Shown one piece after another: positions 6,962 to 50,410 of a stretch of DNA of 58,578 nt. The notes under the pieces are model-generated. The model saw only the letters and a program-made list of their open reading frames with translations, did no database searches and was not told where the DNA came from. The translations under genes were made by a program, and so were the position numbers. The stretch's first letter is position 1, and the number at the start of each line of letters is the position of its first letter. This DNA is from a virus (taxonomy: Duplodnaviria; Caudoviricetes): positions 1 through 58,578 of IMG/VR virus record IMGVR_UViG_3300008107_000057. One strand, given 5' to 3'.

Positions 6962-7231
6962 ATGAAGGTTGAAACAGAACACGACTTTAAAGAATTAAGG
7001 AAACACCTAGATAGTTGGCGTAAAAAATTTCCTATGTTCAAACACGATGTGTATCAAATAGAACACATTGTAGAAAAGCATATTCAAAACTATAGCATTA
7101 TAATGGTGCAATACAGACAGACTAAAAGTCGAGCATGTATTGAAAAAGCGCAGCACGAGATAGATGAAATTAATCGAGTTTTAGAGCTTGTGGGTAAAAT
7201 GGAACTCATGGCATTACTTTCCCAAAGATAA
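6962..7231 (+). CDS. hypothetical helical protein (probably leaderless)
   Basis: 89-aa ORF; TAAATA at 6952-6957 is 4 nt before the ATG. Confidence 0.7.
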   Translation: MKVETEHDFKELRKHLDSWRKKFPMFKHDVYQIEHIVEKHIQNYSIIMVQYRQTKSRACIEKAQHEIDEINRVLELVGKMELMALLSQR

Positions 7232-9817: not shown

Positions 9818-11302
9818 ATGGCAGAGTTGGGTAGAATTTCCGGGCAGATGCTAACTGCCAATCTTGAACGATTGGGTGTAGATCTTGCGTTCGAAACTGA
9901 TCAGCTTTATCTTGATGTTAGTGCTCGCGGTATTGGTATTAATACTGATGCATTTAGTCGTCGACTAGAAGTTAATGGTACTACACAAACTCAATCTCTA
10001 ATAACTCCTCGCGTTGATGTCAACGGGTTAACCATACAGACCAATCAGATTTCCAGTCTTAGTGGCCCAATTTATATTTCTGCCAGTGGCGGTGCAGCTG
10101 GTACTGTGCGATTTGACAGGAACGAGACAGATGGATTATTCTTTGACGGTAATGTAATTGGTAGTAAACTCTTAAACTCAAGCATAGAACTTCGTCCATC
10201 TGGTTCTGGGGTTGTTAACATTATCGATAATGCTGAGATTTATGCAAATCTTCGGGTAACTGGCAACATCCAAATCGACGGCGACCTAGGATTTAAAGGA
10301 CAGTTAATTGTTGGCGATTCTGCATCAGATACTGTTACCATTAATCCTGAGTTCACACAATCATTAACTCCATACACTGATAATACATATAATCTAGGAT
10401 CTGCTAGTAAGTCCTGGAATGGCATGTTTTTATCTCAAGACACGCAGTTAAACTTTGGTAACATTCGAGCACAGTTTAATACCATAGAAACTACTGTATC
10501 TAACTCAAATCTTGAACTCTACGGCAGTGCCACAGGCGGAGTATTAGTTGAGTCTTTAAAATTTAACGATAATGTAATTTCAAATACCAACGGAAGCATA
10601 GTATTAATTCCAAATGTAATTTTTGATAAAACAACTGCAATAGTTGCTCCAGTAGGAACTACTGTAAATCGCTCTACATTAACACAGGCTGATTTTAGAT
10701 ACAATACTACAATAGATACATTCGAAGGCTTTACGACTGCTAAAACACAGTTTAACGGAGTAGCAGATTCAGATGGCAATACTCGAGTCATTGCACCTAG
10801 ACCAAGGTCACTAAACAACGACACATTAAGTTTCTTTGTTAACGGAGCACTCACAGCTACTATTAGCCCAACTGCGGTTTCGACTGATATCTTTGAAGTA
10901 AATCAAACGCTGAGATTAGCATCGGTCGGTAACCTCATCACTACTGTGCAAAACAATTTAGATATTAATTTTTTAGTATCCGGCACAGCAAGAACAAACG
11001 TTGAAGATATTGCATTTAAAGAAAATACAATATTCGGCACCGCCAATAATATAGAATTTGCTGCTACTGGACAGGGGTATTATGTATTAGCAGGAGATAA
11101 TGGATTGGTTATTCCTAACGGTCCAACGCTGACTACTATCCCTCCAAATACGCAGCTTGGCGATTTTAGATTCAATACAACATTGGGCGAGTTTGAAGTC
11201 TATGACGGTGTAGCTTATGGCCAAATTACAGGCAGCGGGCAAACTGTTACTATTGACCAAATGGAAGAATATGTCGATATTTACAGCCTAATCCTAGGCT
11301 AA
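9818..11302 (+). CDS. tail fibre-like virion protein (paralog of 11422..12930)
   Basis: N-terminal GRISG..L.ANL.R.G.DLAFETD, repeated N.I....N..L...G.G units, P.GTT..R...FRYNT..FEG motif; ends SLILG. Confidence 0.65.
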   Translation: MAELGRISGQMLTANLERLGVDLAFETDQLYLDVSARGIGINTDAFSRRLEVNGTTQTQSLITPRVDVNGLTIQTNQISSLSGPIYISASGGAAGTVRFDRNETDGLFFDGNVIGSKLLNSSIELRPSGSGVVNIIDNAEIYANLRVTGNIQIDGDLGFKGQLIVGDSASDTVTINPEFTQSLTPYTDNTYNLGSASKSWNGMFLSQDTQLNFGNIRAQFNTIETTVSNSNLELYGSATGGVLVESLKFNDNVISNTNGSIVLIPNVIFDKTTAIVAPVGTTVNRSTLTQADFRYNTTIDTFEGFTTAKTQFNGVADSDGNTRVIAPRPRSLNNDTLSFFVNGALTATISPTAVSTDIFEVNQTLRLASVGNLITTVQNNLDINFLVSGTARTNVEDIAFKENTIFGTANNIEFAATGQGYYVLAGDNGLVIPNGPTLTTIPPNTQLGDFRFNTTLGEFEVYDGVAYGQITGSGQTVTIDQMEEYVDIYSLILG

Positions 11303-11326
11303 TTCCAAAATCACATAAATAACTTA

Positions 11327-11404
11327 GTAGAAGTGTTGACCAAATGCTTCTACAATCAAACTGTGGTAAACCCGCAACGTAAGGTGGTTAACCGTGAAAC
11401 ACGG
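11327..11404 (+). ncRNA. candidate structured cis-regulatory leader RNA with a possible pseudoknot
   Basis: Starts 5 nt after TAAATA (11316-11321). Stems 11327-11337/11343-11353, 11362-11366/11372-11376 and 11392-11396/11400-11404; TGACCA (11337-11342) is complementary to TGGTTA (11385-11390). Confidence 0.5.
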
Positions 11405-11421
11405 GGTATTGAGGAGAGCAC

Positions 11422-12930
11422 ATGGCTGTTGGTCGTATTTCTGGGCCGCTCTTAAAAGCAAACCTGCTACGTAGCGGCACGGATCTGGCTTTTGAGACCG
11501 ACTTACTATTCCTGAAGGTAGCTTCGCCTACCAACACTACTCCACGAGTGGGCATCAACACGAATAATCCTCAATACGATCTAGATGTCATTGGTACAAC
11601 CCGAACAACAAATTTAGAAGTTACAAACCAAGCTAACATTGCAGGTGTTACTTTTAACGGCAATAATATTAGTTCAGATACAAACGTTCTATCGTTTTAT
11701 CCAGGTGCTAATGACTTTACTGTTTATCAATCTAAAATACAGATTGATGACATTCAAATTCAACAAAATAAAATATCAACCACTGTTTCTAACGCAAATT
11801 TAGAACTAAGAGCCAACGGTGCCGGCACAGTTGACATTTATTCAAACACAGTTATCAATGGCAATCTGCACACCACTGGCAGTATTAATGCAGATGGCAA
11901 TATTACCATTGGTGGCAATATCACTATTGGCGACGAAACCACTGATTCTATTGTTATCAACGCTGGTATTAAAAGCGACTTATTACCCGAAGTAACAAAT
12001 ACATACAATTTGGGTTCGTCAACACTGCGTTGGAAAGATTTATTTGTTGCTAAATTAAATCTTGCAGACATTGAAATCTTTGACAACGTTATTCGAAGCA
12101 TTAGCAGTAATGCTAACCTAGAATTAAGAGCCAGCGGCACTGGTGCAATTAGATTAGAGCGCATTGACATCAACGAAAATGTTATTTCTACTTGGAATAA
12201 CAACGAAGATTTAATTGTAAGACCTAGCGGCACTGGTGTTGTGCGATTTGATACCACCCAAGCAATTACATTACCAAAAGGTACAACTTCACAACGTCCA
12301 ACTGGTTCGACAGGTATGATGAGATTTAACACTGAGTTAAATCGTTACGAAGGTTTTGATGGTACTAATTGGTTTAATCTAGCAGGCGTAGAAGATATTG
12401 ACGGTAATACAAAAATTACAGCAGAATTAACACCTGGTGCGAACGATAATACTATTAGATTTTATGCGGGCGGATCAGTAGTTGCCGATATTAATACATC
12501 AAGATTTAATATTGCTAACAAATTAAGAGTTGGTAGCATTGAATTAGAAAATAATACAATTCAGTCAACAGTTACCAACACTGATCTAAGTATTCAAGCC
12601 AACGGATCCGGTAGAGTCCTTGTTGAAAATTTTGCATTTCGTGACAACACAATTACAAATACTGCAAATAATGCAGTAGTTACATTTCAACCATCTGGCA
12701 ACGGATATTTTAAAATTGCCGGTTCGAATGGATTTGTATTGCCATTTGGATCTAGCACCGGTAGACCAACTGCGTATGCAGTGGTTGGTATGACACGATA
12801 CAATACTGATACAGGAGCCATTGAAGTATGGAATGGAGCAGCCTGGGCTAACCCGTCCGGCCTGCAAGGTGCTGTAAATGAAATTACTGCAATTGATATT
12901 GCAATTGAAAAAGTTCTACAACTAGGATAA
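11422..12930 (+). CDS. tail fibre-like virion protein
   Basis: MAVGRISGPLLKANLLRSGTDLAFETD, repeated SNANLELRA.G.G units, LPKGTTSQRP..GMMRFNT..YEG; GAGGAG SD; ends VLQLG. Confidence 0.65.
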   Translation: MAVGRISGPLLKANLLRSGTDLAFETDLLFLKVASPTNTTPRVGINTNNPQYDLDVIGTTRTTNLEVTNQANIAGVTFNGNNISSDTNVLSFYPGANDFTVYQSKIQIDDIQIQQNKISTTVSNANLELRANGAGTVDIYSNTVINGNLHTTGSINADGNITIGGNITIGDETTDSIVINAGIKSDLLPEVTNTYNLGSSTLRWKDLFVAKLNLADIEIFDNVIRSISSNANLELRASGTGAIRLERIDINENVISTWNNNEDLIVRPSGTGVVRFDTTQAITLPKGTTSQRPTGSTGMMRFNTELNRYEGFDGTNWFNLAGVEDIDGNTKITAELTPGANDNTIRFYAGGSVVADINTSRFNIANKLRVGSIELENNTIQSTVTNTDLSIQANGSGRVLVENFAFRDNTITNTANNAVVTFQPSGNGYFKIAGSNGFVLPFGSSTGRPTAYAVVGMTRYNTDTGAIEVWNGAAWANPSGLQGAVNEITAIDIAIEKVLQLG

Positions 12931-13677: not shown

Positions 13678-16600
13678 ATGGCAGAGTTTAAATTAGGTAG
13701 ATTGCGCTTTGTTTGGAAAAACATTTGGGCGATTTCTACCGCATACGTTAAAGATGACGTTATTAGATATGGTGGTAAAGTTTATGTTTGTTCGATAAGT
13801 CATACATCGAGCGCAACCGCTAATGGTGGATTTTATACTGACCTAACAGCCGCAAAATGGCAGTTAATGACCGACGGTATTCAATGGGCACAGGCGTGGA
13901 ATGTTAGCACATACTACAAAGTAGCTGACGTTGTTCGCTGGGGTGGACGTTCATATATTTGTAATACAGGTCACGTGTCAAACGCATCTGCTACCAGCGA
14001 AGCAGGCGGTCTAGAAGCCGATATTGCAAAATGGGATCTGTTAAACGATGGTATTGCATTTGCCGGAAGTTGGTCTAGTGCTGTACGTTACAAATTAAAT
14101 GATGTTGTCAGCTACGGTGGACAACTTTATATCTGCCAATTATTTCACTTATCTATTGGTTCTTTTGAACCTGCTAACTGGACATTATTTGCATCTGGTC
14201 TTCAATTTGAAGGTGCCTACAGCGGCGCAACTGCATATCAACCAGGTGACGTGGTAACCTACGGTTCAAACTCTTACGTTGCTATTCAAACCACAACTGG
14301 TAATTTACCAACTGACACAAACAATTGGACTGCTATTACCAGCGGTGTACAATTCCGTGGTGCATACGCAGGTGGTACTGCTTATAGAAAAGGCGACATC
14401 GTTAGCTTTGGTGGTTACAGCTACGTAGCTAAACAAGACTCAACCGGTAATGCTCCAAGTAATGCAACATTCTGGGATGTATTAAACGGCGGTATCAAAT
14501 ACAGCGCCACAGCATATGCTGGTGGAACAACCTACAACATCGGTGATGCAATTACCTATGGTGGGTATACTTACCTTGCCAAGCAGACAACAACTGGCAA
14601 CAGCCCAACTAATGCAACATACTGGGACGTTCTTAATAAAGGCTATACCTTTATTGGAACATATAATTCAGCAAACACATACAAGCCAGGCGAATTAGTA
14701 GCCTACGGTGGCAATTACTACGCTGCTAAAACTGATGTACTTGCTACACAAACTCCAGCTAATGCCACATACTGGGATACATTTAGTGTTGGATTCAAAT
14801 ATGAAGGTGTGTGGGCTTCACGCACAGCACCTAACAGCTATAAGAAAGGCGATGTTGTTAAACATGGTGGTCACTTATACCTCAACGTATTAGAGTCAAA
14901 CACAGAACTTCCAACCAATGCAACATACTTTTCAAAGCTAGTTGATGGATTTTCTTTTGTTGGAGCATATGCTAATGCAACAGCATACAAACCAGGTGAA
15001 GTTGTAAGATACGGTGGTCGTTCATATCTATGTATTCTAGCACATACTTCAAACACAGCCACAAATATTGAACCACCAAATGCCACATATTGGGAACTAT
15101 TAGTTGCCGGTATGAAATGGCAAGGTACATGGAGTATCTCTACAGAGTATGAAATTGATGATGTTGTATCCTTTGCATCTAGCTCATGGATTTCTGTTGT
15201 CAGCGACAACGTTGGTAATCAACCAGATTCAAGTCCAGGTAGCTGGGACTTAGTTGCACAAACAGGTGACCTAGGTCCAGTATTAACTACCACAGGCGAT
15301 ACATATTTTAGAAACTCAAGCGGTGCAGTTGCAAGATTACCAATTGGCACTAATGGTCAACAATTAGTTGTTTCCGCAGCAGGTATTCCCGGCTACGAAA
15401 ATAATAATCAAACAGCTAACGTATTCTATGTTACTCCAGAAGGTAGTAACAGCAACAACGGTCGTACAATGAATCGTGCATTTGCCACGATTAGATATGC
15501 ATGTTCACAGGTTAGTTCGGGTGCAACAATTTATGTTAAGTCCGGAACATACGCAGAATTATTACCGATCGTTGTTCCAGTAAACGTAAGTATTGTTGGC
15601 GACGGTCTTCGTACAACCAGCATCGGTCCAGCAGCAGGTACAAGTGCAGACGGCAGTACATTAAACAATAGAACAACCATGTTCTTGATGAGTGACGGCT
15701 CACAGGTTTCTAGAATAAACGTAACTGGTATGACTGGATTTGTCAAGAGTGTAGGTAGTCCTACTAACATCGAACTTGCCACTAGAGGTGGTGTGTTCTT
15801 TGGATTTAATGACGCTAGCCCAGTTGTTAACAAGAGTCCATACATTCAAGACGTGACAACATTTAGTACCGGTGGTGTGGGCGCACTCATTGACGGTGGC
15901 GTTCATGCTAGTGGTAACAGATCAATGATCTTAAACAACTTTACATGTATCAATGACAATGGAGTTGGAGTTTGGGTAAGACATGCCGGCAAAGCAGAAT
16001 TAGTTTCTTGCTTTACCTACTATTGCGTATTTGGTTTTGCAGCCAGCGATGGCGGACAGATTCGTTCATTGAACGGTAACAACAGTTACGGTACATACGG
16101 ATCATCTAGTCAAGGATTCGACACCGGCGAAACTCCACCAAACGGAACATTATATGGTAGCGATTTAGTTTGGACATTGGGTTCATTAAGTGGCGGTTCG
16201 TTTAGTCCAGGTAATACAATTACAAGTTCGGGTGGCGCAACAGGTACAGTATTGAGTGTGCAAGACAGCACTGAACGAATAATTTATAAACTTGTATCTG
16301 GCACTTTTGTTGCAGGTCAAACTATTAGCAATGGTTCAGGAGTTACTGCAACGATTGCTACCAGCGGTGTAACTGGACAGAAAGGGTTTGTATTAGCAGT
16401 CAGTGGATTCGTAGCTGAACCAATTCCGGGCGGCAGCGTTTCAATTACTGGAGATTCAACTCCATATATTATTCAAGCAGTAAGTGAATATACATCCGGT
16501 CCAGCTGGATTTAAACCAGCAGGCTTTGCATTATTGGTATTAACTACTGAAAAACTAACAGCCAGTGCTGACGGTACAGCAACTATTATTAGATACAGAT

Positions 16601-17043
16601 ATAGTAAATTGCGTTTAACTGGACACGATTTCTTAAATATTGGTACTGGTGGTATTAGTACTACAAATTATCCAGGTACTCCTACACAGGCAGCATCACA
16701 GGCAAATGAAGTAATTGAACTATTCCCAGGTCGTGTTTATTATGTAACCACTGACCAAGACGGTAATTTTAGAGTTGGTGAATATTTCAAGGTTGATCAA
16801 GCAACTGGTCGAGCAACACTGAACGCTAGTGCGTTTGACTTGAGCGGTTTGACATCATTAAGACTGGGTTCAATCGGTGCTCAAATTGGAGAACTAATTA
16901 ACGAATTTAGTTCAGACGGAACACTAAGCGGCAACTCAAACGCTGCTGTGCCAACTGAACAAGCAACAAAGACATATGTGGATAGCAACATTAATCAAAC
17001 ACAAATTAGTGGAATTGCGTTCTCCATTGCGTTGGGATCATAA
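13678..17043 (+). CDS. tail fibre/spike with 10 CBM5/12-like repeats and a beta-helix (pectate-lyase-like) domain
   Basis: Ten Y..GDVV.YGG..Y repeats (about 13740-15250), then VFYVTPEGSNSNNG...AFATIRYA...IYVKSGTYAE, typical of a beta-helix start; ends TKTYVD...IAFSIALGS. TAAATA at 13637-13642. Confidence 0.7.
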   Translation: MAEFKLGRLRFVWKNIWAISTAYVKDDVIRYGGKVYVCSISHTSSATANGGFYTDLTAAKWQLMTDGIQWAQAWNVSTYYKVADVVRWGGRSYICNTGHVSNASATSEAGGLEADIAKWDLLNDGIAFAGSWSSAVRYKLNDVVSYGGQLYICQLFHLSIGSFEPANWTLFASGLQFEGAYSGATAYQPGDVVTYGSNSYVAIQTTTGNLPTDTNNWTAITSGVQFRGAYAGGTAYRKGDIVSFGGYSYVAKQDSTGNAPSNATFWDVLNGGIKYSATAYAGGTTYNIGDAITYGGYTYLAKQTTTGNSPTNATYWDVLNKGYTFIGTYNSANTYKPGELVAYGGNYYAAKTDVLATQTPANATYWDTFSVGFKYEGVWASRTAPNSYKKGDVVKHGGHLYLNVLESNTELPTNATYFSKLVDGFSFVGAYANATAYKPGEVVRYGGRSYLCILAHTSNTATNIEPPNATYWELLVAGMKWQGTWSISTEYEIDDVVSFASSSWISVVSDNVGNQPDSSPGSWDLVAQTGDLGPVLTTTGDTYFRNSSGAVARLPIGTNGQQLVVSAAGIPGYENNNQTANVFYVTPEGSNSNNGRTMNRAFATIRYACSQVSSGATIYVKSGTYAELLPIVVPVNVSIVGDGLRTTSIGPAAGTSADGSTLNNRTTMFLMSDGSQVSRINVTGMTGFVKSVGSPTNIELATRGGVFFGFNDASPVVNKSPYIQDVTTFSTGGVGALIDGGVHASGNRSMILNNFTCINDNGVGVWVRHAGKAELVSCFTYYCVFGFAASDGGQIRSLNGNNSYGTYGSSSQGFDTGETPPNGTLYGSDLVWTLGSLSGGSFSPGNTITSSGGATGTVLSVQDSTERIIYKLVSGTFVAGQTISNGSGVTATIATSGVTGQKGFVLAVSGFVAEPIPGGSVSITGDSTPYIIQAVSEYTSGPAGFKPAGFALLVLTTEKLTASADGTATIIRYRYSKLRLTGHDFLNIGTGGISTTNYPGTPTQAASQANEVIELFPGRVYYVTTDQDGNFRVGEYFKVDQATGRATLNASAFDLSGLTSLRLGSIGAQIGELINEFSSDGTLSGNSNAAVPTEQATKTYVDSNINQTQISGIAFSIALGS

Positions 17044-17065: not shown

Positions 17066-20000
17066 ATGGCTAAGTCACTAATATTTAATTACACATTTTC
17101 TCCATCAACAGATTCAATTGCTGTCGACGGAAATGTGTCACAAAAGAGAGTATTGTTAGTTACTAATTTAACTGACAACATTATTTTATATAACTTTGCA
17201 GATACTTCGAAAAAGATTATCAGCAGAAGTTACAATGCGTCAACTGATGAAACTACATTCGTATTCCAATACGACTGTTCTGCAATGTCTGCTACGGACA
17301 CCTTGCAGATTTTTATTGAGCAAGATGCAACAAAGTTTGAACCGTCGGATACTTATCAAGATCCGGTGTCTAAATTCCGTGTATCTCAGCCTAATACGCT
17401 GATCGACACTGACTTTGAATACGGTCTACAAGCAACTAAATGGGAAACAGTCGAGCGTCTAAACGACGTCCCAGCATTTCACAGCATTGCCAACGATACC
17501 CCATTAACTGGTATTGTATCTATTACCACAGTTGGTACTAAGATTGTTACAGTGACCACTTCCACATCACACGGATTTGTAACAGGTACTCCGATTGATG
17601 TTCGCGGAGTTGATAGTGCATCGGCAGAAGGCACATTTATTGTTAAACGTACAACTGATACAGCATTTAGCTATGAAGCCAAAGCCGTTCAAGGTGGTAA
17701 CACAACAACTCCAGTTAATCTGTTAAGTCCATACACCACTATCACCGGTGGACGTTTTTATGTTGGTGCTCAGGTATTATTAGATAACACTGCGGCAAAC
17801 ACCGACGGTCCTATTACAACCAATGCAGGAGCTCCTGCACAGTTAACTGTAAGAACTGAACAACAACACGGTTTTGCTAATAACAGTCAATTTTATCTTG
17901 TAAACACTTTATCAAATACTTTCTTAAACTTTAATCCAGTTACTATTAGTAACTCCAGCGGTGAAGTTGACGATCGTCAAACATTGGCCGGCACAGGTGC
18001 TGTGTTTACAGCCACTATTGCTACAACTAACTTGACAATTTCTGCAATGACATCCGGTGTTGTATCGGTTGGTATGCTAGTTAGAGGTGCAGGCGTAACT
18101 GAAGGTACAATTATTACTGGTTTTACATCCGGTACATTTGGTGGTGCTGGTGTTTACACATTAAGTAAAACTAGTACTGTTGGCTCAGGTGTAACAATGA
18201 CAGGTACTAATTACAGTACTGGTTATTTCCTACCAAGCGAACCGTTCCACGTAGGTACTGTTAGACGTGAAATTACACAAGCCGGTATTAACATTTCCAC
18301 ACACGTTATTACTGTACCAGCACACGGACTAGCGTTAGGTGACAGAATTGCATACGTAGGTACAAGTTCCGGCGGATCTGCTCCGCAGGTCAACGCCAAC
18401 GTAAGTGCTAACTTTGCATTCGGTGCAGGTCCTTTGCCATCATATAGTACAACAAATGGTAGATTCTTGTATGTTGGTAACATTACCACTGATACATTTA
18501 AGTTGTTCTCAAGTCCAAAAGATGCATATGCTACAACTAACCCAATGCAGTTTAACGGTATTGGCTCTGGAACACATACATTTGTGTTCTACAAGCGCGG
18601 TGTTGATTTTATCACTGGTATTTCAAGCATTGCCAGCACCAGTGGAAGTCCAGACTATACAGTATCATTAAGCGGTAACAATACAAATATTAGTTTGAAC
18701 ATTTGGCCCAAGCAACAAATTACAATCAGTGGATCAGATGTTAGTAGCTTAAACGGTGTGTACATTGTTTCTTCTACAAGCTATTCACCAACTGGTACTA
18801 GCTTTGTAATGACTGGCCCAACTGACACCAGCGGTATTAACGTTAACGCCGGCAGTACACAAACCTATAGTATTGTAAACTCTGGCGGCAACGGGTCAAC
18901 AACGTTTAATCGTTGGGATTATATTACCACTATTGGTATCAGAGCACAGTTACATAACGACCCTGCAGTCAATGCAACTCGTGTTGCATACCATGACTGG
19001 AAGGCCAAGACTACTAAGTTCTTTGGATTACAAGATGTGCCAACCGGTAGTGACAGAATCTACATTAAAAATCACGGATTAGTAACAGGTGAGCCAGTGG
19101 TATTTGGCTTTAACGGTCAAGCGTGGTCTGGCGGTACAAACCCTCCAGTTGCCAATGCTATCTATTTCGTAAGCAGAATCAATGCAGACGAAATTGAATT
19201 GTATACCAACGAAACTGCAACAGGTTCTGGTCCATACAGTCCTGCGATAGCTAACTTGAAGATTAACTTTAGTGCAGTTACAACCCTAGCAGGCGGATTG
19301 TTTTCACTACACCCAGGTATGACCGTTGCTACCTTTACATCTCAGACAGTTGGAGCAACTGGTCAAGCACGTGACAGAGTTATTTGCTTATTCCAAAACG
19401 TCCCAGCCTGGGTGCGTGAAGGTCAAGCAATCATCCTAAGAGCAGGTTCGGGTTCAACACTGCCAACTCCAGTGGTTAACACTCCAGATACATTTACTTC
19501 ATACCAGAAGTATTATATCCGTAATGTGTTTAATCAAAACTCAACCACTGAATTCTCTCTAAGTATTACGCCAACTGGTCCTTTATTAGACTTTACTGGT
19601 GCTACTACTGCAGGTTCGGCAGGTACAACTACTGCAGGTGGTGGTAGATTCTTTGTTACAGCCATCGATGAGAATCTATATTCAAACAGTTTCTACTTAG
19701 AAAATCATGGCGGATTTGCCACAAACAGACGTGTTGGCGGAACGGTTATTACTGGCCTAACAACTGCGTATACTGGTCAGGGCGTGTATCCACAAACTCC
19801 AGACTATCCAGGTCCATTGTTTGACAAAATTACAGATGCAACTGGCCAAAACTGGCCACGTGTTAGAACATACCTATCGCAACAATCGGCAGCTCAGTTG
19901 ATTCAGGGTCTGACATTGAACGCACAGTATTATATGGTGCCAATTGATAACAACACTTTCAAATTACAGGCATACAGCACATCAGTTTTACCGTCCGGTA

Positions 20001-23000
20001 ACCCAACTGTGCAAATCACTGGTATTGTTCCGGGTGCAGCCGCAGGCGAAGTTGCATTCTCAAGCCCATTTGTGCAAAATCAATATGCCAACAGAATCGT
20101 TGTAGCTACCCAAAATCAGCTTTTCACCGAAAATGCTGTGGTACGTTACGAAAATAGAGGCGGTGTTGATATTGGCTCTGGTACTGTTGGTTTCCCAGGT
20201 TTAGTCAATAACAAGAGTTATATTGTTAGAAACGTAGTAAACGATATTGCATGGTCCGTTAGTGGATTACTATCGGCTGCTACATCAACTGCTACTTCAT
20301 TGACCATTACCACAGCAGTTGGTCTAAATATCGGCGATACTATTAAAGTTGGCAACGAGTACATTTATATTAGCAACATTGTCAGTCAAACACTAACAGT
20401 GATTAGAGGTTTTAGAGGAACTACAGCCGGTGACATACAAGAAGCAACCGCAGTTGAAAAATTATACGGTAGCTTCCAGTTGTTTGATACCACACAGGGC
20501 GCACAACGTACATTCTCGACTGGTGCAGCTGATGCAACCAACGATTTCTTTACGTTAGTTAATCATAATCTAAGAACCGGTGATACAGTTGCAATTTCTA
20601 GCACCGCAGCTGGTACAATTGCTGCCTTCGGTGGTGTGGCAATTTCATTAGTTGGTGCCTCAGTTTACTATGCGTTGGTGTATAACAACAACGAATTTGC
20701 CTTGGCATTTACACCTGCACTAGCATATGCACAATATCCATTGGATATTACAGCAGCAGGTACAGCATGGACATTTGTTCACTACTACAGTTCGATTCCG
20801 TTACAGGGCCTAGCATCTAGCACAGTAGGTAATCACACACTAGAGGACGTTTCTTCAACAGGCACACTGGACGGCGGGTATCAAGTTGTATCTACTACAG
20901 CTACTACCTTTAATCTAGCAACAAATACTACAGTTCCTGTAAGAGAGTTTAAATTTGAACCCGCTGATTATCTAAACATGTTAACTGGCGAATTTATAAT
21001 TCCTAATCATGGTTATATCACTGGTGGCAAAGTAACATACAGCAAAGGTGCATTGGTATATGCAATCGGTGAAGGCCTTGCTGCTGATGTTCCACCTAGC
21101 GGATACAATGCTCTTACAAACAACGCCGCATACTATACTATTAGAACTGGTATTGATTCCTTCCAGTTAGCTACTACCAAAGCTAACGCATTGGCAAATA
21201 TTCCAATTCGTAGATATGCCACATTAGGCAGTACTGGTGCTCATACATTTACTAGTTCATTGGTATATGGAGAAAGTCTAGCACAAGGTCTAGCAACAAT
21301 TGTTGCACGTGACGTTGTTGTCAACGGTTCTTTAAACACTGTTGTTTCAGCAGCTTCGGATAGAATTATTTCTACTGCACACGGTCTAATTACTGGTGAC
21401 CGCGTAACATATCGCGTATGGGCCGGTGGTCGTGTAATTAACGGTCTAGTTGACGGGCGTCAATACTTTGTTAACAACTCCGTAAACACAGGCCCTCGTG
21501 GCGGTGCACAAACCGGCCAATCAGCCAACCAATTCTCCTTGCATAACAGCTGGGTTGGTTCATATACCAACTCTGACCTAGTTGACATGTCCGGAGTAGG
21601 TTCAGGCACTGTTCACCAATTTAAAGTATCGAACCCAACATTAGTTGGTACGTTCTTCAAAGGCGAATGGAATGCAGCAGATACATATGTCTACGGTGAC
21701 ATGGTTATCTATAACGGTATGTATTGGATGAGTTTAGTTAATGCTAACGTTAACTTTGTTCCGGTGGCACTAACAACTGGACTCGATAACCTAGCTTGGA
21801 TGCGAGCTCCAACACTGCAAAACTACAGTACTAGATTCCTAGTCAGCTATAGAGGTGGTGATAACATTAAGTTAAGCAATCAGCTTATTCGCAGAACACT
21901 GATCATTGACGGTTCAAGTGCATCTCGTGTTATTACAGTAGATAACCGTATTAACTTTGCCACAGCACACAACCTAAAAACAGGTGATGCAGTTCGTTAT
22001 AACATTAGTGCTCCGGGTGGTAGTCATCAAGGTGCGACACCAGCAACTGGTGCTTATTCCAACTTTGTTGGAACCACTGGGGTTCCTCAGACACCTATTG
22101 GTGGTCTAGTAGCCAACAGAACTTACTATGTTAACGTACAAGGTTCTACAGATATTACTCTGCATGACACACTAGCAGGCGCTATCGAAGGCGGTTCTGG
22201 TGATACAGGTAACTTTGTAACTGCTGTTAACTTGACCGCAGTTGGTACTGGTACTATACATAGATTTGACTTGATAGAAAATGTTACCTACACAATGAAC
22301 ATCTTGTCGGTGACCAATGACAGAGAAATGATCGTCAGTGATCCATATCCAGCTAAGTCAATTCAATTCAACCCACAAGGTAGTTTTACAACAGTAGCCA
22401 ACCTGATAACAGACACTGTAGATATTCCAGAAAACGAAATTTACATTGCGAATCACGGTCTAGATACCTGCGTTAAGGTATACTACTCAGTGGGTCCAGT
22501 TGGTTCTGGTACTGCTATGGGCGGTTTAGTTGACGGTACTGCATACTATGTTATCAAGTCCGACGAAGACAGTTTTGCACTAGCAACAACAGTTACCAAC
22601 GCATTGTTAAACATTAGAATTGATATCACCTCAACTGGTACTGGTTTCCAACACTACTTTATCGCAGCAACAGCGGCCGGTTCAAGTCAGCTACGCTATG
22701 ATAACGCCGGAGCATTTACGACTACTGCTCCAAGTGGTACATTGTACTACACCGGTCAAATTGGTGCTAACATCCGTGACGGTGTATTAACAGCATTGCC
22801 AATTATCCAAGAAACACAGGTATATGTTCGTCCAGATTGTATCAACGTTCACAGACCGTTTGACGGCGGTGTTGAAATTAACGCTTCGACTAGTCCGGGA
22901 GTTTCGATTACTAGACAGACTCGTAAGTATTTCCGTTATCAATCTGGTAAAGGTCTACAATACTCAACCGGTATTAACTTTAGCCCAAGTATTGACGTTG

Positions 23001-25371
23001 CTAGAATCACACACGATGGCACAACTTATGCCACAGTTAAGACACGTAGACCACATAGATTAACTGTAAACAGCAAGATTATGATTGAGAATGTAGAAGC
23101 CAAAGACGAGTACACAGCAGTCAAATGTGAGCGTGACTTAGCTTACTTCATTGATGGTGTGCGTTATGACATTACATTGGGAACTAACTACAATGCAGTG
23201 TTCTTGGGTCTAGCAGAAGTTAATACTCTAGATTTTAGTGCTACTGTTGTGACAGCAATCAATAATACAAAAACATTGGTTGCAGCATTACCAAACGTTG
23301 CAGCAAGTGCAACAGCTACTAGCCGTTCAAATGCTTTCTTTACAGAAGTGTTAGACATTGCTACTAACGGTCGTGCTAATGCAGATGCGGTAACATTCAC
23401 AAATCCAGGCACAGCAACAGCAAGTCAAATTGCTGCCAAAGACAGAATTGCAGCCAACAAGGCGTTTATTGCAGCTGAAATTAATGCTTGGATTGCAGGC
23501 ACATACCCAACTGCAACCCACGATGTTGCTAAATGTACTCGTGACGTAGGTTATGCATTAAATGCACTAGCATACGACATATTGTATGGCGGCAATAGTG
23601 CAACAGTCAACAGGCAGCATTCTTCTTCTACTTTGATAGTTCTGGTGTATCCGGCATTTATACCCAGGATAAGACACAAACTGTTGCAGCCTATAACAGA
23701 TTGCAGGCAATTATCAGTCAAGTTGTTCAGAACCAAGCTATTACTGGCGGCTTTGGAAATCCAAGTGGAAAGTCAACAGGCAATGCATTGACACAAGACA
23801 CAACCGGCACAGCAGCAAGTGCAGGAGATGGCAGCATATTACAGACACTGGTACAGATTACAGAAGATGTAATTAATTCAGACAGCCAGTTAATTGCAAT
23901 CAGCGGATTACCGGCCATTGTTTATCCAAACGTAGCATGGGCACTTGATGAGTTAGAAACTGCAAAAACTGCTATCGAAGCAGCGAAAGACTCAATTATC
24001 GCCAACGTTGTACGCGGTGCACCATACTCACAGCCAGCAGGAGGCGGCGAGTACTTTGTTATAAACAACATCATCGATGACTTTACTTTCCGTTATGCAA
24101 CGAACGGTGTGCCAATTAATCTAGCACCAAGTGGATTCCCTAGCTTGTTTGTACATAGCTGGACTGATGCTGTGGTACGTGCTGGTGTATTTGATGATCA
24201 AAACGGTATTTTCTATGAATATGACGGCAAGCATCTAAATGCTGTTCGTAGAAGTTCAACAGCACAATTGGGCGGAACAGCGTCATCAACAAGCGGTTCT
24301 AGAAAGCTAACTGGTACAGATACTAACTGGACTAAGCAGCTACGTGCAGGTGATAGAATTGTTGTTCGCGGTCAACCACTAAAAGTTGTAGCGGTAATCA
24401 GCGACACAGAAATACACTTCCAGCCAACATATAGAGGTTCGTCAAGAAGTGGTATCGTTATTACTAAGACGTTGGATCTAAAAATTCCAAGTTATAGATG
24501 GAACAAGGATACCTGCGACGGCAACGGACCAACTGGCTTTAACCTAAACATTCACAGAATGCAGATGGCCTATGTTGATTATAGCTGGTACGGTGCAGGT
24601 AAAGTACGCTATGGTTTCAAGGGACCTGACGGTAAGGTATTCTATGCACATGAGTTAATTCATAACAACGTTGAAATCGAAGCCTACATGCGTTCTGGTA
24701 ACTTGCCAGCTCGCTATCAGATCGAAAACGGCGCGGCCCCAACATTTGCTCCAAGCTTGTACCACTGGGGTGCTTCGATGATCATGGACGGCGGATTTGA
24801 AGACGACAAGGCATATTTGTTCACTGTTGCTTCTGGTTCTGCTGGTAACGACACTGTTACAATTAACCAGGCATTAGCTGGAAGTCCAGTTCCAATCTTA
24901 AGCCTACGTTTAGCTCCTTCCGTAGATAGCGGCCTAGTTGGCGCATTGGGCGATCGTGACATTATCAACCGTATGCAGATTGCACTTGACTCTGTTGGTG
25001 TTGTGGTTTCTAACGCAACTTCTAGACCAGCTTCGTTTAGACTTGTACTAAACGGTGCTCTAGCACAACAAGCATACTTTGCTAACTATGGTAGTCCATC
25101 GTTGACACAGATTATCAAGCACACCGGTGCAGCCAATGACACAGTTGTTGGCGGTACAACACTGTTTGAATTCCGTGCGCTAGCAACAGTTACAGGTAAC
25201 GTGACAGCGCAAGATTTGTCACAGTTGGTCGAAATTGGTAACAGTTTACTTGGTGGTGATTATGTATTCCCGAACGGGCCAGACGTAATTACACTAGTTT
25301 GTGTGCCAAGAGATACTACAGCAGCGACAGCAGTAACTGCTCGATTTACCTGGAAAGAATCACAGGCTTAA
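17066..25371 (+). CDS. giant virion appendage protein (about 2768 aa if joined), interrupted by a -1 frameshift near 23599-23615
   Basis: ORFs 17066..23791 and 23701..25371 together align end to end with paralog 26534..32083 (DFEYGLQ.TKW, HRPFDGGV, KY.RYQSGKG, VRAG.FDDQNGIF.EY, YSWYGAG, EAYMR.GNLP.RY, FPNGPDV, W.E.QA). The second frame is open from 23599. Confidence 0.75.
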
Positions 25372-35538: not shown

Positions 35539-35571
35539 AGTAGTATATTTACCGTTGTAATAAATAACAGT
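35539..35571. promoter_or_regulatory. back-to-back divergent late promoters (two TAAATA) in 33 bp
   Basis: Minus-strand TAAATA at 35551-35546 (7 nt from the gp14 ATG) and plus-strand TAAATA at 35561-35566 (5 nt from the gp13 ATG). Confidence 0.65.
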
Positions 35572-49417: not shown

Positions 49418-50410
49418 ATGGCATCATTAGCAGAAATTCGTGCAAAACTTCAAGACGCACAAAACAAGGGTCCTAGCGGCTCACAACAAGGCGGCGGCGA
49501 CAACGCAATTTACCCCCACTGGAACATGCAAGAAGGCAAAGAAGCGACCATTCGCTTGTTAGCTGACGGCGACACTAATAACACTTTCTTCTGGGTAGAA
49601 CGTGCTATGATCAAACTAGAATTCAACGGCATCAAGGGTGAGACTGATTCTAGAAAAGTTCAAGTACAAGTACCATGTGTAGAAATGTATGGTCCAAACG
49701 AAGTTTGTCCAATCCTAAGCGAAGTTCGCGGTTGGTTCAAGGACAAGTCGTTGGAAGACATGGGTCGTAAATATTGGAAAAAGCGTAGTTACATTTTCCA
49801 AGGCTTTGTAGTAGATGATCCAATTGGTGAAGACAAAACACCAGAGAATCCAATCCGTAGATTCATCATCGGACCTCAAATTTATCAAATCATCCGTTCA
49901 GCATTAATGGATCCAGAGTTGGACGAATTGCCAACCGATGCACTAAAAGGTGTTGACTTCCGTATTGCTAAAACTAGCAAAGGCGGATTTGCTGACTATT
50001 CAACTTCTAAGTGGTCACGTCGCGAACGTGCTCTTAATGAAGCTGAACAAGCAGCAATTGCACAGCATGGTTTGTTTGATTTGAAAAGCTTCTTACCTAA
50101 GAAGCCAGGTGAAGTTGAACTCAAAGTAATCAAAGAAATGTTTGAAGCTAGCGTTGATGGTGAGGCATACGATCCAGCACGTTGGAGTCAATATTACAGA
50201 CCAGCAGGCGTGAGCCAAGCTACCGGCGATCCTTTGAAGCCGTCAGCACCACGTCATGACGAAGAGGAAGCAATGGCTGCACCAGCAGCATCATCTGCAC
50301 CAGTTACACCATCAGCACCAGCGGCTGCACCAGTTGAATCAGCTGGTTCGACAGATGGCGCAAGTCGTGCGCAAGACATTCTTGCCATGATTCGTAACCG
50401 TCAAAAGTAA
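49418..50410 (+). CDS. gp32: single-stranded DNA-binding protein
   Basis: A.IRLL.DGD...FFW, CVEM....CPI, YWKKRSY, G.DFRI.K..KGGFADYSTS; flexible C-tail; AGGAGG SD. Confidence 0.85.
   Translation: MASLAEIRAKLQDAQNKGPSGSQQGGGDNAIYPHWNMQEGKEATIRLLADGDTNNTFFWVERAMIKLEFNGIKGETDSRKVQVQVPCVEMYGPNEVCPILSEVRGWFKDKSLEDMGRKYWKKRSYIFQGFVVDDPIGEDKTPENPIRRFIIGPQIYQIIRSALMDPELDELPTDALKGVDFRIAKTSKGGFADYSTSKWSRRERALNEAEQAAIAQHGLFDLKSFLPKKPGEVELKVIKEMFEASVDGEAYDPARWSQYYRPAGVSQATGDPLKPSAPRHDEEEAMAAPAASSAPVTPSAPAAAPVESAGSTDGASRAQDILAMIRNRQK

Follow-up and report, generated by a model that had tools for sequence, protein, structure and literature searches.

Leaders with RNA structure that controls the translation of the gene behind them are, to our knowledge, few among the dsDNA phages. 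One is the mRNA leader of gene 32 in phages T4, T2 and RB69, which serves as an autogenous translational operator; its 5′ H-type pseudoknot lies ahead of the ribosome site, and a 2010 review names this element as possibly the sole viral pseudoknot in translational autoregulation (PMC3014915). In the 5′ UTR of the MS2 maturation gene, a long-distance interaction over about 100 nt with the initiation region restricts translation (PMC4615214), and in the leader of the E. coli alpha operon (rpsM) the S4-bound RNA is a complex pseudoknot with the ribosome-binding region that represses by trapping and not by mere occlusion of the Shine-Dalgarno sequence (PMC10931766).

The leader that we describe here belongs to none of these three systems. 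Like the gene 32 leader, it belongs to a T4-type phage mRNA and contains a predicted H-type pseudoknot, but it precedes a fibre-like late gene and not the gene of a ssDNA-binding protein, whose homologue lies elsewhere (49418–50410); moreover, the A+U-rich unstructured tract of UUAA(A) repeats that in gene 32 reaches from the knot across the ribosome site is absent, a hairpin (P3) and a G-rich 17-nt linker standing instead, and there is an extra 5′ hairpin (P1) with a loop complementary to codons 3–5. MS2 likewise has a leader of several hairpins, which precedes the gene of a low-copy virion protein; there, however, the 5′ element pairs with the Shine-Dalgarno (SD) sequence, and control is kinetic, by a metastable hairpin in a replicating RNA genome, whereas here the partner is codons 3–5, the SD is unpaired and the genome is that of a dsDNA jumbo phage. 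With the alpha-operon leader our proposal shares a complex pseudoknot that closes in the ribosome-binding region of the first cistron, yet that leader belongs to a host ribosomal-protein operon, has S4 as its ligand and is unrelated in sequence. Small H-type pseudoknots with an A-rich third loop, located in the 5′ UTR near the start codon, are also known from the preQ1-II, SAM-II and SAM-V riboswitches, in which the 3′ strand of the knot includes the SD; in the present leader some 20 nt and another hairpin separate the knot from the SD. A conserved core with covarying stems in a 5′ UTR, a generic riboswitch trait, is found at this locus.

The phage, the gene and its probable late promoter

The stretch of DNA analysed, hereafter the window, is a 58.6-kb fragment (58,578 nt) from an IMG/VR virus record, rated 16% complete by CheckV. 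It encodes T4-type homologues of the portal, prohead protease, major head protein, sheath, tube, terminase, ssb, UvsX and UvsY, and its major head protein shares 69–74% identity with that of Sinorhizobium phage Phosso, Vibrio phage 2.275.O and the GAP32/CBB/BF group, all of them jumbo myoviruses. Since related contigs of 210–270 kb receive completeness ratings of 60–71%, we infer that the source is an uncultured freshwater jumbo myovirus with a genome of roughly 350 kb. Near-identical DNA of positions 10800–12400 (0.99–1.00 of the sampled words) was found in 14 DNA runs from at least 13 studies, labelled as freshwater, lake water, crustacean or fungus metagenomes, so that the phage can be called widespread; six metatranscriptome runs contain 27–59% of the words of the same segment.

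The leader occupies an intergenic gap of 119 nt (11303–11421) between ORFs 9818–11302 (494 aa) and 11422–12930 (502 aa), and the elements discussed below are collected in Table 1. The product of the downstream ORF matches PHROG 6005 (virion structural protein, E 4e-33) and PHROG 32294 (baseplate wedge). Its homologues range from 350 to more than 2187 aa and all have the N-terminus in common; this domain gives weak matches (E 1e-4 to 2e-3) to tail fibre proteins of Prochlorococcus phages, and tblastn of the whole protein against cultured phages yielded matches confined to the central repeats of cyanophage proteins. The upstream neighbour, 9818–11302, is a paralogue with an N-terminal domain 47% identical over residues 3–85; it follows the preceding ORF after 18 nt, without a leader, and uses GGU-AGA, the leader-bearing gene GGU-CGU. 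Further downstream, the 1121-aa product of ORF 13678–17043 is a tail fibre protein (PHROG 9851, E 1.6e-296) in which the carbohydrate-binding CBM_5_12 repeat occurs six times. The 2241-aa ORF 17066–23791 overlaps the next listed ORF, 23701–25371 (TTG start), by 91 nt, and both match PHROG 5838; the start may be set wrongly, or the gene may be frameshifted or split.

Table 1. Elements of the leader and the gene that follows it (window positions, all on the + strand)
Element	Position	Strand	Remarks
T4-type late promoter core (CATAAATA)	11314..11321	+	predicted transcript start 11327
P1, 5′-terminal hairpin, 11 bp with two G-U	11327..11353	+	apical loop GACCA 11338–11342
S1, pseudoknot stem (stem 2 of the preliminary description)	11362..11376	+	pairs 11362:11376, 11363:11375, 11364:11374, 11365:11373; loop includes box 1
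Box 1, 5′ strand of S2, UAAACC	11367..11372	+	covaries with box 2
Loop L3, 9 nt	11377..11385	+	A-rich; insertion point for one or two extra hairpins in relatives
Box 2, 3′ strand of S2, GGUUAA (TGGTTA box of the preliminary description)	11386..11391	+	covaries with box 1
P3, hairpin CCGUG AAA CACGG	11392..11404	+	compensatory changes in both leader forms
Shine-Dalgarno GAGGAG	11411..11416	+	read from sequence; position conserved in alignment A4
Codons 3–5 site, UUGGUC	11429..11434	+	complementary to the P1 loop plus one base, 11338–11343
Fibre-like virion gene	11422..12930	+	502 aa; conserved N-terminal domain of about 60 aa, variable remainder

The gap, its TAAATA (11316–11321), the stems, the loop and the SD are all present in the sequence as the preliminary description of this locus had placed them. 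ATAAATA occurs 11 times in the window against 19.05 ± 4.03 expected; ten copies are on the + strand, and every one of these ends 5–100 nt ahead of an ORF start. The + strand copies, at 7228, 11315, 13636, 17040, 25427, 35560, 37399, 43866, 49340 and 53291, chart the probable late promoters of the window. Those at 35560, 43866 and 53291 end just 5 nt before a listed ATG, and by T4 spacing their transcripts would start at the ATG itself, which points to leaderless mRNAs or to mis-set start codons. The gene 32-type ssDNA-binding protein gene at 49418–50410 has a 71-nt leader after its ATAAATA, long for this window, that could hold an operator in the style of gene 32.

Late promoters of T4 have their core at −13 to −6. 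Applied to the core at this locus, the rule puts the start at the first base of P1, so transcription probably starts at 11327, six bases after the core, and with that start the leader would be the whole 5′ untranslated region, of about 95 nt. TAAATA is found upstream of the leader in all related loci except those cut by a contig end, and a T4-like late motif ahead of structural genes has been described for the Rak2-like jumbo phages CBB and GAP32 (PMC5259590). RNA-library contigs from three studies that are identical to the window begin at 11341, 11345 and 11347 and extend into the gene, and one 50-nt RNA-library piece begins at 11327; such starts are a weak hint in favour of 11327, as contigs cannot show ends. 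Positions 11002–11326 are covered by none of the RNA contigs in four runs, a lack of cover that carries no weight, and the RNA contigs of relatives match the conserved core at about 11355–11408 only, their flanks being unlike.

Taken alone, the leader sequence does not fold better than chance. Its minimum free energy is −30.9 kcal/mol, dinucleotide shuffles average −25.84 ± 3.67 (z = −1.38), and 20 of the 200 shuffled sequences reach a fold at least as stable, so the case for a structured leader rests on comparison. Two other explanations of the gap were set aside. An intrinsic terminator, already dismissed in the preliminary description, finds neither a terminator-like site on the + strand of 11303–11421 nor a U-tract after 11404; and a small upstream ORF, the GTG ORF 11333–11455 that is open in the core, would be broken in frame by the inserts of 13, 16, 17, 22 and 23 nt that relatives carry.

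Conservation and distribution of the leader

The same leader stands at five loci whose protein is 69–71% identical. A search pattern of two 10-mers from the leader core, which fixes 20 core bases, matched at least 118 viral contigs; of 123 occurrences, 118 have TAAATA upstream and an ATG downstream, and the remaining five are cut by contig ends. As 82 leaders were found by this pattern, the invariance of the core is partly forced. A search with the protein only, using an alignment of the N-terminal domain of about 60 aa, returned at least 598 stretches; at least 584 of these are relatives of the gene, and the best 80 were kept. Direct parsing found the leader in 78 of these 80 loci, a proportion that should not be extended to the gene family as a whole, since selection of the best 80 favours close relatives of the query; the other two are a locus cut by a contig end and one with a deletion (L160). 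The deletion in L160, of about 70 nt, has taken away the promoter core, P1 and box 1, and has kept an inserted hairpin, box 2, P3, the SD and GGUC. A covariance model built from 79 unique leaders (R1) matches just upstream of the gene in 74 of the 80 protein-found loci at E ≤ 0.1, a number that falls to 65 at E ≤ 0.01. The leader is single copy, with one R1 match in the window and one in each of five contigs of 210–270 kb. On this basis it appears to precede one tail-fibre-like gene in at least several hundred uncultured phage contigs, the gene having at least 584 relatives.

Within the leader, mean identity of the core is 0.95 in one of the two leader forms introduced below (form A), where the search pattern has partly forced it, and 0.87 over the 141 leaders of the alignment. 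Three nearby synonymous third positions show identities of 0.37–0.65, below the core block, and conservation above the level of synonymous sites suggests that the core makes tertiary contacts or is recognised by a bound factor.

Outside the uncultured phages the leader was met nowhere in the collections searched. Megablast and blastn found no similar DNA among 50,697 records of cultured phages. The exact pattern of two 10-mers had eight matches in 185,579 prokaryote genomes, about the number expected by chance on our own estimate, and none is a leader; R1 gave a single match, of E 0.054, on the opposite strand. Rfam 15 contains no model that matches the leader in a search of positions 10800–11900 at E ≤ 10, the sole match being an unrelated snoRNA model on the other strand (10878–10942, 16.4 bits against a gathering score of 40), and eight divergent leader copies gave no Rfam match at E ≤ 1. 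A literature search outside subscription journals and supplements found no account of the motif. The preliminary description had proposed an undescribed, structured, cis-acting RNA in the leader of a fibre-type gene, to be checked by conservation upstream of homologous genes, by covariation and against Rfam; this proposal is sustained on each count, as the leader is conserved upstream of the homologous gene, its helices covary and no existing family was matched.

Hairpins and pseudoknot of the leader

The 143 unique leaders fall into two forms, A (n = 107, including the window) and D (n = 36), and 141 of the leaders make up the alignment, A4, in which double-sided changes of the pseudoknot were counted. 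RNAfold places a hairpin in the P1 segment in 78 of 79 unique leaders; in the exception, L052, it picks two other small hairpins although the arms of P1 are present. All 11 pairs of P1 show double-sided changes, with 217 double-change cells against 71 ± 8.7 in column shuffles, a number reached by none of 500 shuffles, and 27–71 cells in slid controls. G-U pairs are common in P1, e.g. U.G at one pair in 38 leaders, and they mark the mRNA as the relevant strand, because the other strand would carry A-C mismatches; the preliminary argument from G-U pairs, that the structure is one of RNA and not a DNA palindrome, was thus well founded. RNAalifold on a raw MAFFT alignment recovered stem 2 and a shifted stem 3 only, P1 being missed through misalignment.

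The 5′ arm of P1 is richer in purines and the 3′ arm in pyrimidines (purine fraction 0.65 vs 0.35; 116 of 141 leaders). As a candidate anti-SD the 3′ arm was rejected: its duplex with the SD region has a mean energy of −3.7 kcal/mol against −4.1 for reversed arms, and it pairs better than the reversed arm in 56 leaders and worse in 79. No specific anti-SD partner for GAGGAG was found.

Downstream of P1, five bases of box 1, those after GUGGU, change together with five bases of box 2 just before P3. The combination AAACC/GGUUA occurs in 107 leaders, UAGCC/GGCUA in 12, CAACC/GGUUG in 10 and UAACC/GGUUA in three, with CAGUC/GACUG, UCGCC/GGUGA and UAUCC/GGGUA in one each; UAACC/GGCUA, which has a central A.C mismatch, is found in eight. 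In A4, four of the six pairs of S2 and one of the four pairs of S1 show double-sided changes. The outer pair of S1 is U:A in 130 leaders, A:U in eight and C:G in three, and its third pair U.G in 136, U:A in four and C:G in one. The fourth pair is G:C in the window and persists in just 102 of 141. S1, S2 and the helix between the P1 loop and the codons, described below, jointly contain 37 double-change cells against 3.7 ± 1.7 in shuffles, none of 500 reaching this number, and against 2–22 in slid controls. Taken together, S1, a linker of one or two bases, S2 and an L3 of 9 nt form a predicted pseudoknot of the classical H-type, and S2 abuts P3, so that the two helices could stack.

This pseudoknot differs from the one in the preliminary description, which had paired the loop of stem 1 with TGGTTA. 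TGACCA and TGGTTA are indeed complementary, with one G-U pair, but the stem-1 loop shows no matching change when box 2 varies. In the 23 unique leaders with a variant box (first four bases), the stem-1 loop/TGGTTA pairing retains only two or three of four core pairs; 22 of them keep GACC in the loop, and the stem-2 loop and the box keep four or five of five pairs. The earlier pairing was rejected because box 2 changes with box 1 and not with the P1 loop. As for the three stems drawn originally, stem 1, stem 3 and the outer pairs of stem 2 have covariation behind them, whereas the overall fold is not supported; the fifth pair of stem 2 would compete with S2.

P3 also carries compensatory changes. 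Among form A leaders, the second pair is C:G in 103, G:C in three and A.C in one, and the fourth is U:A in 98, U.U in eight and U.G in one; in the 36 leaders of form D, GGGA..UCCC replaces P3 in place and becomes GGCA..UGCC in three. L3 is 9 nt long in 89 of 143 unique leaders and carries an insert in the other 54, of which 52 fold as one or two hairpins with varied stems, many of them GNRA-capped. The label ‘three-stem’ understates a motif to which 54 of 143 unique leaders add one or two hairpins.

These patterns bear on whether the conserved block acts as DNA, i.e. as a recombination linker for the swapping of fibre modules or as a promoter-proximal protein site. It does sit at the 5′ edge of a gene with a highly variable C-terminal part, and it contains two similar 10-mers 21 bp apart. 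An element of DNA would however not account for pairing preserved by compensatory changes in four helices, for the frequent G-U pairs that leave A-C mismatches on the other strand, for inserts of 9–32 nt between the 10-mers that ignore helical phase and fold as hairpins, or for a block more conserved than the three neighbouring synonymous third positions, and we find this explanation hardly credible.

P1 loop, codons 3–5 and a possible brake on initiation

The P1 loop with its following base, GACCAA, is a perfect complement of UUGGUC in codons 3–5. GACC is kept in the loop though the stem of P1 is otherwise free to vary. At the Gly-Arg junction, 135 of 143 unique leaders have GGUC, and 122 of these 135 have GACC in P1; the eight leaders without GGUC (seven with GGAA, one with GGAC) all lack GACC. 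The GGAC leader, L189, has the loop GUCC, a clean compensatory swap of A:U to U:A, and in two leaders with the loops GACU and GAUC the pairing is kept by wobble. Among the 13 GGUC leaders that lack a GACC loop, some keep three or four pairs by wobble and others break the helix. The fifth pair between loop and codons is A:U in 101, U:A in six and G.U in two, and is mismatched in 13 of 122. It should be noted that the compensatory events in this helix are few and may stem from only about three lineages.

A comparison with paralogues, i.e. genes of the same phages that have the same G-R-I-S-G start and no leader, provides a control. GGUC is present in 108 of 113 leader-bearing genes (unique sequences) and in four of 46 paralogues that lack the leader but share the G-R residues (Fisher p about 4e-28, with no correction for relatedness). 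Arg is encoded by CGN in 109 of the 113 and in 11 of the 46, the paralogues mostly using AGA. That a synonymous constraint goes with the leader is difficult to account for unless it acts at the level of RNA. We infer that the P1 loop pairs with codons 3–5 in the mRNA, and ideas of translational control gain indirect support from this constraint, tied as it is to the leader. In the alpha-operon leader, a hairpin loop pairs just after the start codon.

The conservation, the helices and the leader-linked codon constraint are established at the level of sequence comparison; what the leader does with them is put forward here as a proposal. We propose as the likeliest explanation, though with somewhat less than even confidence, that the gap is the 5′ leader of a late fibre-protein mRNA and acts in cis as a brake on translation initiation. 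The late transcript from 11327 would fold in the 5′ to 3′ direction into P1, the H-type pseudoknot and P3 abutting S2, leaving a free SD; GACCAA of the P1 loop would then pair with UUGGUC of codons 3–5, creating a second pseudoknot with the ribosome-binding site inside a closed loop. Such a closed, knotted domain would lower initiation although the SD itself is unpaired, and the brake would set how much fibre protein a strong late promoter yields. The pseudoknot core, close to invariant, may serve as a scaffold that places the P1 loop, or as the docking site of a factor.

A role in mRNA stability or processing would leave initiation unaffected: the 5′ hairpin and the knot would block decay that depends on the 5′ end, or mark a site at which read-through transcripts are processed. 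P1 begins at the predicted first transcribed base, transcripts of the upstream paralogue would read through the gap, and the RNA contigs that begin within P1 are a weak hint in the same direction. Yet neither the leader-specific GGUC constraint in codons 4–5 nor the conserved GACC loop on a freely varying P1 stem would be explained in this way, and the leaders of the window's other late genes are short (5–35 nt). To our minds a role of this kind, on its own, is clearly improbable.

If the brake were purely structural, there would be no obvious need for a core conserved to this degree, which favours the involvement of a trans factor or a ligand. If the factor is a protein, the leader would be a translational operator whose pseudoknot core is bound by a phage protein (the fibre itself, an assembly partner or a dedicated repressor) or by a host protein, and the bound protein would stabilise the closed form so that initiation is repressed or trapped, as gp32 or S4 do. 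This would fit with the high conservation of the core sequence itself beyond pairing (S1, the GGU linker and the A-rich ends of L3) and with the tie between the leader and a gene whose N-terminal domain is equally conserved, and it has precedents in the gene 32 pseudoknot (PMC3014915) and in the ‘entrapment’ pseudoknot of S4, of which the rpsM ribosome site is a part (PMC10931766). The binding protein is, however, purely hypothetical, and since leaderless paralogues possess the same N-terminal domain, self-binding would have to discriminate by RNA alone; we rate an operator of this type as doubtful.

If instead the core is an aptamer for a small molecule or an ion, the leader would be a riboswitch in which the ligand shifts the pairing between P1 loop and codons according to the host's condition. 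A location in the 5′ UTR, a core that hardly varies between stems that covary, optional hairpins of variable length at one site, many of them GNRA-capped, and an H-type pseudoknot with an A-rich L3 are all features in its favour. Against it, the controlled gene encodes a virion protein, with no metabolic link to hint at a ligand, the SD is outside the pseudoknot, and no Rfam riboswitch model matches (E ≤ 10 for the window, E ≤ 1 for the eight divergent copies), so that we judge a riboswitch quite unlikely.

The leader may be regarded as a candidate orphan riboswitch or operator, and the motif is a complex one, with three to five hairpins, probably two pseudoknots and a core close to invariant. 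In a broader and more speculative reading, which we hold to be rather unlikely, it would represent a new class of sensor RNA, i.e. a double-pseudoknot aptamer for a small molecule or for a phage or host protein that gates a single receptor-binding fibre. If this were true, a large clade of freshwater jumbo phages would tune the set of fibres it makes, and perhaps also its host range, to the condition of the infected cell. We believe that this RNA of about 120 nt, for which nature has supplied compensatory variants, could offer a handle on how giant phages dose individual tail fibres.
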